Below, in pieces: positions 53,872-64,000 of a stretch of DNA of 64,000 nucleotides; the first letter of the stretch is position 1, and every line of letters starts with the position of its first letter. The stretch comes from Octopus vulgaris (Eukaryota), in contig OX597820.1 in NCBI GenBank assembly GCA_951406725.2, forward strand, positions 45,694,001 to 45,758,000, written 5' to 3'. The notes beneath the pieces are model-generated. The model did no database searches, was not told the origin of the DNA, and worked only from the letters and a program-made list of their open reading frames with translations. The position numbers and the translations under genes were made by a program.

Positions 53872-53905
53872 TATGTATGTATGTATGTATGTATGTATGT
53901 ATGTA

Positions 53906-55172
53906 CGAGGGGCGTTCAATAAGTAATGCCCCTGATCCACTTCCCATAGCAGTAGAGCAACAAAACTTGCCACAGTTATTAGCCTTTTTCTACATAGGAA
54001 CCACCCAGAGTTTCGCATTTCTCCCATCGTTTGATGCAGCTCTGGAGACCGTTTTTGTAGAAGACCCCAGCTTGGTCCTCCAGCCACGACGTGACTTCAG
54101 AAATCAAGGCTGCATCATCTGGGAAACGCTTTCCTTTCAAAAACAACTTCATGGCTGGGAAGAGGTGAAAATCAGAGGGTGCAAGGTCAGGAGAGTAGGG
54201 GGGATGGGGGAGGAGTTCATAGCAACACACCTGTGCTTCTAATCTGGAGACACGCGAGTTGTGGACCGGAGCGTTGTCCTGCAGGAGGAGGATGCCTTTG
54301 CTGATCTTGCCCCGCCTCTTGATTTTGATAGCTTCTCTTAATTTCCTCAAAAGTGAAGCGTAATAGGCTTCTTTGCCAGGAAATCTGTCATCACTACTCC
54401 GTCCTGGTTCCAGAAGACTGTGGGCATGACCTTGCCAGCGGAGGGATGCACCATTGCCTTCTTTGGAGGAGGTGAGTCACGTTGCTTCCACTGCATTGAC
54501 TGGGCTTTGATTTCTGGATCATAGTGATGGACCCAGGTTTCATCCTGTGTAATCAGTCTTTTGAAAAATTTTGACTCATCTTCTTGGCACATCTCCAAAT
54601 TCATCCTCGAGCACTCGACGCGTTCTTGCTTCTGGAAAGATGTGAGCAACCTGGGAATCCATCTGGCAGACACTTTTTGCATATGCAAATGGTCATGAAT
54701 GATAGTTTCCACAGACCCGGTACTAATCTTGACCTCATGGGCTATTTGGTGAATAGTTATGAGTTGATCTTCGAAAATGGCAGCCTCAACTTGACAGACA
54801 GATGCCTCATCAATGGCAGAAGCGGGGCGACCAGATCTGGGAGCTGCTTCCACAGAGTTCCAACCATGTTTGAATTCACGATGCCAGCCTTTTACAAGTT
54901 CATATGATGGGGCATCATCACCATAAGTTACTTTCATTTCATCAAAAGTCTCCCGTGGTGTGCGTCCTTTCAAATACAAAAACCGGATCACTGCTCAACA
55001 CTCAACAGGCTCCATTTCACACTTGACTCAGTTCAAACACATGTAAATTTGAAACCACAATTATTTCAGAGCTGTAATTTGTCACTTAATTTATAGAGAT
55101 ATAAATAATTGCACATGAAAAATTTCAGCTAGATCAAGTGGGTCAGGGGCATTACTTATTGAACGTCCCTCG
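53906..55172 (-). mobile_element. Full-length mariner (DD34D, irritans-like) with inactivated transposase (55015-53979)
   Basis: 37-bp TIRs (2 mismatches), TA TSD; WIPRLL, QDETW, QDNA-34 aa-YSPDLAPSD; TGA at codon 7 and a net 16-bp deletion at ~54369 relative to the copy at 63349. Confidence 0.95.
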
Positions 55173-55216: not shown

Positions 55217-55560
55217 GGCACAGACATGGCTGTGTGGTAAGAAGCTGGCTTCTTAGTCCCACTGTGTGGCACACTGGGCAAGTGTCTTCTATTATTGTCT
55301 TGGGCCGACCAAAGCTTCGTGAGTGGATTTGGTAGATGGAAGCTGAAAGAAGCCTGTCATGTCTTTGTGTGTGAGTGTGTGTGTGTGTGTGTGTATCTGT
55401 GTTTATCCCCCATCACTGCTTGACAACCAGTATTGATGTGTTTATATCCCCATAACTTAGCAGTTTTGGTAAAAGTGATCAAATGAATAACTGTCAGGTT
55501 TAAAAAAAATAAGTACTAGGGTTAATTTATTTGACTAAAATTCTTTAAGACAGTGCCCAG
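55217..55560 (+). mobile_element. SINE family B, CpG-decayed
   Basis: Consensus match with CG>TG/CA changes. Confidence 0.75.
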
Positions 55561-55777
55561 TGTTATATTCAGTTTTGCATAATTTAGATGACAGTTTATT
55601 CACAGCACTCTGTATACACACACACTCACTCACACACACACACACACATACTGCTGTCTAATGAATGTAACAAGTCAAAGATTAAAGTTTGAAATTTGTT
55701 TTATGTCAAGTTATATGTAAGCAATATAACATTACACTGAAGGATTACTCTCTATACTTTTTAGTAGAATACATATA

Positions 55778-56288
55778 TTAGCCTGTCCTGAAAATAATGG
55801 CTGCTCTAAGTGTAGTGTTTTGAAACACAATTTTATCATAGTATTTTAATTATATTTTAGGTGAATTTTGACATACTTAATAATTGATGTATGCTCTTTA
55901 ATAATTTTCTACTTATTTCAGACAGAAAACATTCCTGAAGAATAGGCGCCCTTAATTATGAACATGACAAAAAAGGACCTTTGCTTACTTTTCTTGTATG
56001 AGTTCAAGCTTGGGCACAATGTCTCCCAGACTGCTGCCAATATCAACAGAGCATGGGGATAGGGGTCCACAAGTGATCGCACAGTATGAAGGAGGTTTCA
56101 GAAAATCTGTAGGGGTGATGAGAGCCTTGAAGAGGAAGAAGGTAGAGGATGGTCATGCAGTCTTGACAATGAACAGTTGAAAGCAATTGTTGAACAAAAC
56201 CCACATCAAAGTGTCAGAGAAATGTCTCAGGCACTTAGTGTCAGTATTGCAATGGTCTCATGCAATCTGCAGAAGATTGGTAAGGTGA
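55778..56288 (+). mobile_element. Mariner 5' fragment (Hsmar1/cecropia-like HTH region)
   Basis: ATG at 55958: MNMTKKDLCLLFLYEFKLGHNVSQTAANINRAWG...ESLEEEEGRG...DNEQLKAIVEQNP, with stops. Confidence 0.8.
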
Positions 56289-56331
56289 ATGAGGGACAAA
56301 CATTGAATTGTAGAGGTGTGATGTGAATAGA

Positions 56332-56958
56332 ACATAAGGTGTACTAGCCATCTGAATGTGGCTAGCCACTGGGGGTGGGGTGTTACTGATGCTTTTAGCC
56401 CCAGGTGATCAACGTCACCAGATGGACTTTAGACACAATCTCAGTGCCCTTGTGTTATTTGCAAAGGGAGGTCATCCTCCCTCGAAAACCTAAGTACTAC
56501 ATACGGACTATAGTTTCAAAGTAATTGCCTCTCGTCAACGCATGGTAAGCACCGGTTTTCGATGAAGGAGACCCCTTGCAAATAATATTTAACGTTTTCA
56601 CAGCAACCACTGTCACTGATTTAGAAAAACTGTCTGAAAGCAATAATAAATCTCTGAACGAGATATAAACAGTAACCGCTCGACAACGTAAGGTGTACTA
56701 GCCATCTGAATGTGGCTAGCCACTGGGGGTGGGGTGTTACTGATGCTTTTAGCCCCAGGTGATCAACGTCACCAGATGGACTTTAGACACAATCTCAGTG
56801 CCCTTGTGTTATTTGCAAAGTCCATCTGGTGACGTTGATCACCTGGGGCTAAAAGCATCATTAACACCCCACCCCCAGTGGCTAGCCACATTCAGATGGC
56901 TAGTACACCTTACGTTGTCGAGCGGTTACTGTTTATATCTCATTCAGAGATTTATTAT
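56332..56958 (-). mobile_element. ORF-less retrozyme/Penelope-like element: 354-bp partial tandem, terminal inversion, 13-bp TSD
   Basis: Direct repeats 56331-56466 and 56685-56820 (1 mismatch); inverted arms 56641-56784 and 56817-56960 (2 mismatches); TSD TGATGTGAATAGA at 56319-56331 and 56959-56971. Confidence 0.85.
56500..56544 (-). ncRNA. Minimal type I hammerhead (C3U variant)
   Basis: Minus: CAUGCG-UUGACGA-GAG-gcaauua-CUU-U-GAA-ACUAUAGU-C-CGUAUG; 6-bp stem I (one GU), perfect palindromic stem III, GUC triplet. Confidence 0.75.
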
Positions 56959-57969
56959 TGATGTGAATAGAGTTATTGATAATTGTTTTGAGAAGAAATG
57001 GGATGAGGTAGATGGGTCATGTCCTGAAGAAAGAGGAAAGTGGTTGGGTACGAGGAGTAATGGAAATGAATAAGGAAATAAGCAGAAGAAGGGGAGACAA
57101 AGTCATAGTTAAAGAGCAAATGAGAAGGGGTCGTTTTGTGAGACAGTAGTGTAAAAGAGTGGGCAAATTAAGGAAGATTGTGAAGGGGGCCACAAAGTCA
57201 ACCTCTGCTTTAGCAGGGAAAACAACCTTCAAATGCTTTTTGTTTTTGTAGTTGCTCTGTACTGATGCACATATACACATACGTGTGAAGCACATATATT
57301 TGAAAGAAAAAAAAGAAACCTAAAACCTAAACATATATGCTTAAATAAATAACCATTCTTAAAAAATAGATACACATTACAAAACCATATTTCATATGCC
57401 TACACACACATACCTATGCACACATGCACACACACATATCTAGATGCACACATTTACATATAGTTATACACACAAACACACAATTACATACAGGTTCACA
57501 AAAATTTATAACTTCATACAAATACATACAACTACATACACATACACATCCTACACACACATTAAAGCAACAACAACAATAGCAACTAAGACGATGACAA
57601 CAGCAATATGCTGTTGTTGTTGCTGGAGAATATTGGAAAATAAAATTAAATTATAGATAGTAAAACACTAAAGAATTATTTGACATTTTTGAAAGTAGGA
57701 GCTGTATTGCTGCCTGGAGAGATGTCTAGTTTTAACACATACAACAATGTGCTTATGCAAATAAATATTGAAGAATTATAGATGAGGTATTCTCTCATTT
57801 CTGAACTAAACACTCTCCAACAATATTTTTTTAACAAAACAATTACAGCAGTAGTAGCAATGGTAGCAACAACAGCAATAACAACAACAACAATTCCAAC
57901 ATTACCACTATGTATACAGACATGCAAAGATACATATGTGACCATGTCAAATGTATACGCATATAAATA

Positions 57970-58860
57970 CAGAGTGCTGTGAATAAACTGTCATGTAAAT
58001 TATGCAAAAATGAAAATAACATTGACATCGCATTTTAACAGATATATTTACCAAAATTACATAAACATATCTTGAAACACTAAGAGTAAATTTATTCAAT
58101 AAAATTGCTATTGGCTTCAACCACAGCCTCCAGACGACTTCAGAATCTCCTGCAACTCTTCTGGATGGTCTCCTTGTTTAAGTTGGTGAATGCTGCCATA
58201 ATCCTTGCCTTCAGTTCATCTTTGGTGCAACAAGGAGTTTTGTTGGTCTCTTGCTCAACTGCACCCCACATATAATAATTAAGGGGGTTACAGTCTGGGG
58301 AGTTAGGTGGCCAAATGTTAGGGGTGATGTGGTTACAGAAATTGTCTGACAACCATGACTGGGTTCTCCTGCTTGTGTAGCATGGTGCAGAGTCCTGTTG
58401 CTAGACATAGGGTCTTCCAGCAGCTGCTCTCTTTTTACTCAGGACAGCACTGCCTCCTTCAGACACTTGATATAGTCCTCTGTGTTGAGTCTGAGGCTGT
58501 ATGGGAAGGTGAATAGAGGCACAACGTCACCATCACTAGTGATCACTCCAAACACCATGATGCTGACTGGATGTTTAATTTTTATCACACTTGGTACATG
58601 TTTTGGGGATACTGCAAGCCAACAGTTGTTCTGTGTGCTCACCATCTGTTCATATTGGGGCTTCCGGCATGAATGCCAAGCAGTACAGCATGTTATTTCC
58701 AAATTTCTGGCAGAGTGAATTGTGTCATTGTGCTAGTTTTCTCACATGTGGTGCCCAACTGACCCTACTATACTGTGTAGTTGACAAAATCAAAAACAAA
58801 CAATGCCCATATGTGAAATTAAAAATAAAAAAGTGGCAACAATTTACCCATCGCACCCTG
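57970..58860 (-). mobile_element. DD37D (maT-type) deletion derivative, copy 2
   Basis: TA|CAGAGTGC...GCACCCTG|TA; KHPVSIMVFGVITSDG, QQDSAPC-37 aa-WPPNSPDCNPL(N)YYMWG. Confidence 0.85.
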
Positions 58861-58869
58861 TATATATAT

Positions 58870-63100: not shown

Positions 63101-63348
63101 GCTGGATTTTTGCCAAAACTTGAAACCAGTTTATTCCAGCTCTTTGTGTTCTGTGTTCAACTGGTACTGAAGTGAACATTACCTGTCATCCTTCAGGGAC
63201 CATGACATAAGCCACTAGTCCAGGGTGGTAGCTGACATACTTTGTTGTATTTGTTCTGGATCTTTGTTTTCTGAGTTCAAATCTTACCAACAGCAAAGGT
63301 TTATCACATCAGAACCATGATTTGATTATGAAATTTTTAATGGATGTA

Positions 63349-64000
63349 TGAGGGGCGTTCAATAAGTAATGCCCCTGACCCACTTCCCATAGCAGTAGAG
63401 CAACGAAACTTGCCACAGTTATTAGCTTTTTTCTACATATGAACCACCCAGAGTTATGCATTTCTCCCATTGTTTGATGCAGCTCTGGAGACCGTTTTTG
63501 TAGAAGACCCCAGCTTGGTCCTCCAACCACGGTGTGACTTCAGAAATCAAGGCTGCATCATCTGGGAAACGCTTTCCTTTCAAAAACAACTTCATTGCTG
63601 GGAAGAGGTGAAAATCAGAGGGTGCAAGGTCAGGAGAGTAGGGGGGATGGGGGAGGAGTTCATAGCTGCACGCCTGTGCTTCTGATCTGGTGACACGCGA
63701 GTTGTGGACCGGAGCGTTGTCCTGCAGGAGGAGGATGCCTTTTCTGATCTTGCCCCACCTCTTGATTTTGATAGCTTCTCTTAATTTCCTCAAAAGTGAA
63801 GCATAATAGGCTCCTGTAATTGTGGTACCCTTTGCCAGGAAATCTGTCATCACTACTCCATCCTGGTCCCAGAAGACTGTGAGCATGACCTTGCCAGCGG
63901 AGGGCTGCACCCTTGCCTTCTTTGGAGGAGGTGAGTCACAGTGCTTTCACTGCATTAACTGGGCTTTGGTCTCTGGATCATAGTGATGAACCCTGGTTTT
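63349..64000 (-). mobile_element. Second copy of the DD34D mariner (3' part; runs off the window)
   Basis: Same TIR after TA; ORF 63422-63910 AGKVMLTVFWD...QDNA...YSPDLAPSDFHLF, highly similar to 53906-55172. Confidence 0.92.

Follow-up and report, generated by a model that had tools for sequence, protein, structure and literature searches.

Two groups of retroelements, the animal non-LTR retrozymes and the endonuclease-bearing Penelope-like elements, are among the closest described systems to the octopus insertion analysed here. In frogs, where homology to a Penelope pseudo-LTR was at issue, 24 of 57 retrozyme families matched known elements (Li et al., bioRxiv 10.64898/2026.07.22.740005). 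Penelope elements are marked by a one-ended tail and an inverted 5'-truncated copy (PMC8557442; PMC3846280), and a Penelope protein studied in purified form nicks both strands of the target and extends them, its two start points lying inside the RNA on either side of the tail (PMC11167929). In the latter study, Frangieh et al. report no RNA-seq reads starting or terminating at the Penelope cut. Natural hammerhead ribozymes carry either the C3-G8 or the compensated U3-A8 form of the core (PMC3088659; PMC4209133). RtcB is the ligase behind U6/LINE-1 chimeras, in which it connects a cyclic-phosphate end with a 5'-OH end (PMC6789731), and in vitro it closes retrozyme monomers into circles (PMC7229834).

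The window, i.e., the whole stretch of 64,000 nucleotides of Octopus vulgaris DNA that was analysed, contains an insert of 627 bp. On its testable features the insert holds as a young, multicopy, ORF-less copy of an animal non-LTR retrozyme family, in which the sequence places it in subfamily A. The best explanation overall, to which we assign a probability of about 0.85, is that of a 5'-truncated two-armed retrozyme copy, likely inserted by the reverse transcriptase (RT) plus GIY-YIG endonuclease of a Neptune-like Penelope element, while chimeric members of the family would have arisen from joined cut ends. The retrozyme class itself is already known; the cut-to-cut chimeras are the new part. 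No published report of the family or of retrozyme-Penelope chimeras was found in the open literature (closed journals, Repbase, Dfam and supplements lay outside the search).

The insert in the window and its family

The 13-bp target duplication that the first-pass annotation had placed around the 627-bp insert was found again, together with the two kinds of repeat described inside it, i.e., direct repeats of 136 bp (56331-56466 and 56685-56820, spacing 354, 1 mismatch) and inverted arms of 144 nt (56641-56784 and 56817-56960, 2 mismatches), and the 4-nt overlap at the switch between the arms. The features are listed below in the order of their coordinates.

56319..56331, no strand: left copy of the 13-bp target-site duplication; the final base doubles as the first base of the unit
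56331..56820, minus strand: left arm, 490 nt = 1.38 units, ribozyme sense
56331..56684, minus strand: full 354-nt unit, G+C 43.5%
56455..56585, minus strand: long hairpin with the predicted hammerhead at its apex; basal 8-bp stem common to three subfamilies
56500..56544, minus strand: predicted type I hammerhead, from geometry, covariation and the coincidence of the cut position with the chimera junctions
56685..56820, minus strand: partial second unit, direct repeat of 56331-56466, 136 bp, 1 mismatch
56817..56820, no strand: 4-nt microhomology joining the two arms head to head
56817..56960, plus strand: right arm in ribozyme sense, 144 nt; runs from unit position 255 past the unit end and on into the tail
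56917..56960, plus strand: Penelope-type tail, 44 nt, at the right end only (family range 41-48 nt)
56959..56971, no strand: right target-site duplication, 13 bp

The 3' end of the left arm (56331) is the tail-less start site, and its 5' end is unit position 219. The longest stop-free frame in a tandem array of the unit is 66 codons, leaving no ORF, and no ORF with RT and GIY-YIG was present in or between units, such ORFs being present in other families of the genome. No tRNA gene was detected in 55500-57800, and the unit is not a tRNA-derived SINE. The window copy contains one hammerhead and can therefore neither excise a circle nor release a monomer by itself; other members of the family (L125, L144, L158 and L169) contain two to four. 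Contigs of two other sequencing runs contained the right junction between element and flank, the element part being 15 and 28 bases, below the 31 set for bridging. The flank-to-flank join expected of an empty site was found in no contig of the other sequencing runs. Near the insert, a broken mariner-type transposase fragment (55958-56289; Pfam HTH_48, E 5e-6, two stops), with copies 92-96% alike, stops about 30 bp to its left. The window also contains two pairs of long direct repeats, 49760-50646 with 57967-58867 (88% alike) and 53897-54540 with 63340-63999 (92% alike).

The claim that the element is multicopy was borne out by a search of the genome (2.8 Gb, 227 contigs), in which the unit gave at least 125 matches when 40 of 3,231 candidates were scored; the nearest copies are 99% alike. 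The 25-nt motif at the 3' end of subfamily A gave 497 matches with at most 1 mismatch (several matches per element are possible), and a tail motif spanning the sister subfamilies gave 2,717 (0 for the reversed control). Retrozymes are recognised by a unit of about 150-450 bp with G+C below 50%; the units of subfamily A copies are 354-358 bp long, that of the window copy having a G+C of 43.5%, and are arranged in arrays of up to 3.1 units. Subfamily B, with a 357-bp unit about 70% alike to A, was reached via public contigs, and B in turn led to the sister subfamilies C, D and E.

Subfamily C (L172, L243 and L194; G000 C2, C12 and C7) has a 352-bp unit, copies 98-100% alike, a fully canonical predicted hammerhead, arrays of up to 4.8 units per arm and a location nearly always in TA runs. 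It is probably the active lineage and the best substrate for an assay. Subfamily E (L221/L223, G000 C1:20000915-20004828) has a 359-bp unit, a canonical core and a different helix III palindrome, and is near subfamily A in the sequence around the ribozyme. A 119-bp minisatellite of at least 6 copies (L207, G000 C1:11168447-11169072) is composed of a short retrozyme 3' end and a TA run.

Read in the sense of the ribozyme, the outer ends of the copies lie at unit position 348-354 or 41-48, which amounts to two fixed 3' start sites separated by 41-48 nt; the inner ends are scattered. Circularly permuted breakpoints, which had been anticipated, were thus not observed, the variation being limited to the inner ends. 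Among 28 two-armed copies, 25 had exactly one tail (p = 1.4e-5; duplicated loci counted once each, and L149, L030, L111, L114 and L158 excluded as ambiguous). The target duplications of other copies are 10-17 bp outside TA runs, and the targets are AT- and TA-rich. In the window copy and in others, the two arms of an element have rare variants in common, indicating that both arms came from one source. The earlier description of a Penelope-style 5' inversion can be kept for its Penelope-type marks, but the 'inversion' itself is better read as two head-to-head arms, each from a 3' start site. The two start sites, together with the extension of both target strands, explain the one-tail, head-to-head pattern by one cDNA per strand and start site.

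The predicted hammerhead and its fold

A type I hammerhead had been proposed on the minus strand at 56500-56544. Both geometry and covariation agree with this proposal. Scoring against hammerhead models, which had been suggested as a check, gave no support, since Rfam returned no hammerhead match at the window locus and five related loci; its matches below threshold were of the hairpin-type microRNA and simple-repeat kinds only. The ribozyme call accordingly rests on geometry and covariation. The predicted structure consists of helix I (6 bp, 56539-56544 with 56500-56505), a core at 56532-56538 with U at position 3 (U3·G8), helix II with its loop (56518-56531; 4 bp including two G·U pairs in the window copy, 6-nt loop 2) and helix III, an 8-nt palindrome (56507-56514). 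The cut is predicted between 56506 and 56505.

Based on an alignment of 18 copies from subfamilies A, B and C (about 70% alike), pairing holds in 95% of the cells of the proposed structure, and both sides have changed in 7 of the 27 pairs, including pairs in helices I and II and in the helix III palindrome. The pairing or covariation score was equalled by none of 500 shuffles, in a test that ignores relatedness and aligns only three lineages, and slid controls went down to 21-53%. All 38 segments covering the motif contained the hammerhead. For the larger hairpin, in which the hammerhead had been placed at the apex, the fold of 56440-56600 gave z = -5.7, and none of 200 shuffles was as stable. 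The 45-nt hammerhead motif by itself has an ordinary folding energy (z = -1.1). Among three small hairpins noted earlier, two are present in the minimum-energy fold, but the pairing of a G-run with a C-run is absent from it.

The canonical core expected of the consensus failed for subfamily A. Its exact matches carry U3 in 229 cases and C3 in 6, and the Watson-Crick pair at positions 3/8 is absent (U3·G8 in 229 of 235 exact matches). Because C3 in a canonical core was found in the sister subfamilies B, C and E, subfamily A has likely lost it. Since U3·G8 departs from the rule of C3-G8 or U3-A8, the predicted ribozyme of subfamily A may cut slowly.

Chimeras at the predicted cut and candidate partner Penelope families

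The genome was searched for retrozyme cores in which a purine stands directly behind the cut, pyrimidine starts being covered in subfamily A only. A total of 17 rows was obtained: seven were point changes, one was a short insert at the cut, and nine represented six elements that switch to foreign sequence. In the assembly sequence of these six chimeric elements, the retrozyme stops exactly at the predicted cut and is followed by foreign sequence. Except for one, the foreign part begins directly after the predicted hammerhead cut of a Penelope-like family encoding RT and GIY-YIG. Three chimeras join subfamily A to family beta, at three loci and with different beta variants, and two join subfamily D to family gamma. 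The sixth (L267) consists of subfamily B followed by a different foreign sequence. At L168, subfamily A ends at its cut and continues into the 3' end and tail of beta, starting right after the beta cut. The partner of subfamily D had been predicted beforehand to be a Penelope family cut at that point, and gamma proved to encode RT and GIY-YIG, with the junction after its hammerhead; beta likewise encodes both domains.

As a control, unit positions 166-207 of subfamily A were examined with a sensitivity of about 60% by design: switches to foreign sequence occurred at the cut only (3 of 5 rows), and the other two rows were a deletion and a small indel. The junctions retain retrozyme residue 17, and homology at the join therefore does not explain the chimeras. 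In four two-armed chimeras the junction is identical in both arms, which favours an RNA joined before copying. Reciprocal chimeras, searched for with some of the end types, were not found (1 match, an ordinary copy, versus 1 in the control).

The junctions point to in vivo cleavage, followed by RNA ligation or a template jump. Ligation of the cut ends is the probable route, and a template jump is the less likely one. Both ribozymes are likely to cut in living cells, with the chimeras as the DNA record. We consider it fairly probable that retrozyme and Penelope RNAs cleave themselves in the germ line, and that their ends are joined crosswise, family by family (A with beta in 3 of 3, D with gamma in 2 of 2), before insertion. 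Family beta is thus far the best candidate for the partner of subfamily A, being found in all three of its chimeras.

Several observations were made alongside. In all six chimeras (L256, L260, L264, L267, L268 and L272), the retrozyme part is only about 30-55 nt long and ends, or turns back on itself, around unit positions 125-149, possibly through stalling of the enzyme in a hairpin whose other strand remains annealed. A subfamily C copy (L259:1500-1560) carries an insert of about 14 nt exactly at the cut site. Some candidates were rejected. L301, taken for a second hammerhead joined to gamma, is in fact a diverged gamma copy and was removed from the count; L238, in which subfamily C and beta form a fine mosaic, was excluded because it might be a consensus error; and L220, L161 and L187, which adjoin Penelope pieces but have TA spacers, were read as separate insertions.

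The predicted hammerhead of gamma has a 7-bp helix I and a U3-A8 core, and among 13 gamma breakpoints within 29 positions (counted by eye), 4 are copies starting at their own cut (p = 8e-4). The breakpoints of beta, among the 100 of 323 rows listed, were mostly homopolymer variants; one two-armed beta copy (L304) starts at the cut in both arms. In the copies of beta seen (L052/L070 and L046), the hammerhead has C at position 13, yet the chimeras start exactly at the beta cut. At L285:1424-1581, a 3' fragment of gamma beginning at its cut is fused to a stretch similar to small-subunit rRNA (Rfam E 1e-10, below threshold). A third family, alpha (L061, L062 and L067), is a young Neptune-like Penelope family with many open RT plus GIY-YIG frames of 781 codons, a further frame upstream, 333-359 codons long, in two of the copies, a U3-A8 hammerhead and a tail of 36-38 nt.

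Intact elements with RT and GIY-YIG are present in the genome. Since the chimeras carry a Penelope 3' end and could move in cis, it is the insertion marks and L239 that speak for the Penelope machinery. The chimeras would attest to cutting and co-occurrence, but not by themselves to mobilisation in trans, and L239 is a single case. In this insertion (L239:1615-2130), the left arm is the 3' end of alpha and the right arm is a subfamily C unit, with no TA spacer. No sequence homology of the unit was detected to 43 Penelope loci of several families, and the likeness of the tails to one Penelope family was weak (p = 0.02, 0.12 and 0.31 for three subfamilies).

Proposed mode of mobilisation and relation to known systems

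According to the mechanism that we propose, tandem source copies would be transcribed, and hammerheads paired through the palindromic helix III would cut a portion of the RNA. The Penelope enzyme would nick both target strands and begin one cDNA at each start site. To get past the cut site, these cDNAs would be copied from multimers left uncut or from re-joined RNA (circular or ligated); they would halt at variable points and then join by microhomology. Occasionally, cut ends of retrozyme and Penelope RNA would be joined together and then inserted.

A stricter form of this scheme holds that each insertion is a rolling-circle copy of a single 354-nt circle made by hammerhead cutting and ligation. 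The arms do run through the cut site, for as long as 3.1 units (subfamily A) or 4.8 units (subfamily C), and the units are near-uniform in most multi-unit elements. Folding the 354-nt unit as a circle, as had been proposed earlier, predicted a stable structure (z = -4.5 versus 50 shuffles). The chimeras show that the joining of cut ends is possible, and circles of coral, mussel and axolotl retrozymes have been demonstrated (PMC7229834). Against this stand L125 of subfamily A and L172 of subfamily C, in which the units differ and yet follow the same order in both arms; this fits a multimeric template and is left unexplained by a single monomer circle. In addition, a Penelope enzyme in vitro mainly took unprocessed RNA (PMC11167929). 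Of about 30 subfamily A breakpoints counted by eye, 5 place a 5' end at the cut, which is no significant pile-up (p = 0.065), and the read-through arms together with this absence of pile-up indicate a template of uncut multimers or re-joined RNA. Parts of the unit are contained in 14 sequencing runs, guessed to be RNA although none is recorded as such; their contigs cover the unit, and one returns after 354 bases, as a tandem and a circle would alike. The strict monomer circle is a tentative reading, somewhat more doubtful than credible.

Two other explanations concern the origin of the repeat, and both are improbable. The repeat could be the pseudo-LTR of an unfound autonomous Penelope element, the copies being its truncated ends. 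Tail, inversion and hammerhead are indeed features of pseudo-LTRs (PMC8557442; PMC4209133), and 150 of 6,136 GIY-YIG candidates were scored. The tandem units, however, adjoin without an intervening ORF, all 22 tail-motif loci read out contained the same short repeat with no Penelope protein match, and the canonical 6-bp and 4-bp helices differ from the minimal hammerheads of the autonomous families in this genome, so that we give this origin a very small chance. Hardly better are the prospects of a spread by LINE-type machinery or as a DNA minisatellite, with the subfamily A hammerhead dead and the chimeras being chance recombinants or assembly errors. Such an origin would agree with the U3·G8 core, with the lack of an Rfam match and with the resemblance of the nearby mosaic L238 to a consensus error, but three features oppose it: there is no poly(A) end, internal starts are fixed at two sites, and the one-tail rule applies. 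It would also have to accommodate five independent elements joined at both cuts with residue 17 kept, and nowhere else in positions 166-207. The retrozyme copy inserted by a Penelope-like enzyme thus remains the preferred reading.

If retrozyme and Penelope RNAs do cleave themselves in the germ line and are joined crosswise, the chimeras would be direct evidence that the weak hammerheads of animal Penelope elements are active in vivo, as is a U3·G8 core, and that re-joining of cut ends is routine, which provides a route to circles and to copies of more than one unit; they would also name the partner enzyme of each retrozyme lineage. The cut-to-cut chimeras bear on two open questions, and together with the mixed insertion at L239 and the presence, in a single genome, of both partners as very young copies, they make these questions testable on named sequences.

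The comparison with known systems gives both agreements and differences. In common with the animal non-LTR retrozymes (PMC7229834; bioRxiv 10.64898/2026.07.22.740005), the octopus family has a short non-coding tandem unit (354 nt versus 350-390 in mussel), a single type I hammerhead (here predicted) in each unit, its helix III being a short palindrome, G+C below 50%, a target duplication longer than 4 bp and Penelope elements in the same genome. Unlike them, it has U3·G8 across subfamily A, is dispersed as short two-armed insertions instead of long arrays, has no pseudo-LTR homology that could be found, and forms chimeras with Penelope 3' ends at both cuts. With the endonuclease-bearing Penelope-like elements (PMC8557442; PMC3846280; PMC11167929) it shares partial tandems, a head-to-head inverted 5'-truncated copy, a one-ended tail, two internal start sites, AT-rich targets and a preference for microsatellites. 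In contrast to these elements, the family in the window lacks an ORF, its tail is 41-48 nt (30-40 in the latter), and its hammerhead is situated about 175-220 nt from the start sites. Relative to Frangieh et al., who found no RNA-seq reads marking the cut, the octopus chimeras would provide genomic evidence for such cut ends. As in the U6/LINE-1 chimeras (PMC6789731), an RNA end with a 2',3'-cyclic phosphate would be linked to a retrotransposon RNA at the latter's 5'-OH end before retrotransposition; in the octopus, however, both ends would derive from hammerhead cuts, the carrier would be Penelope-like, and the ligation is deduced from the junctions.
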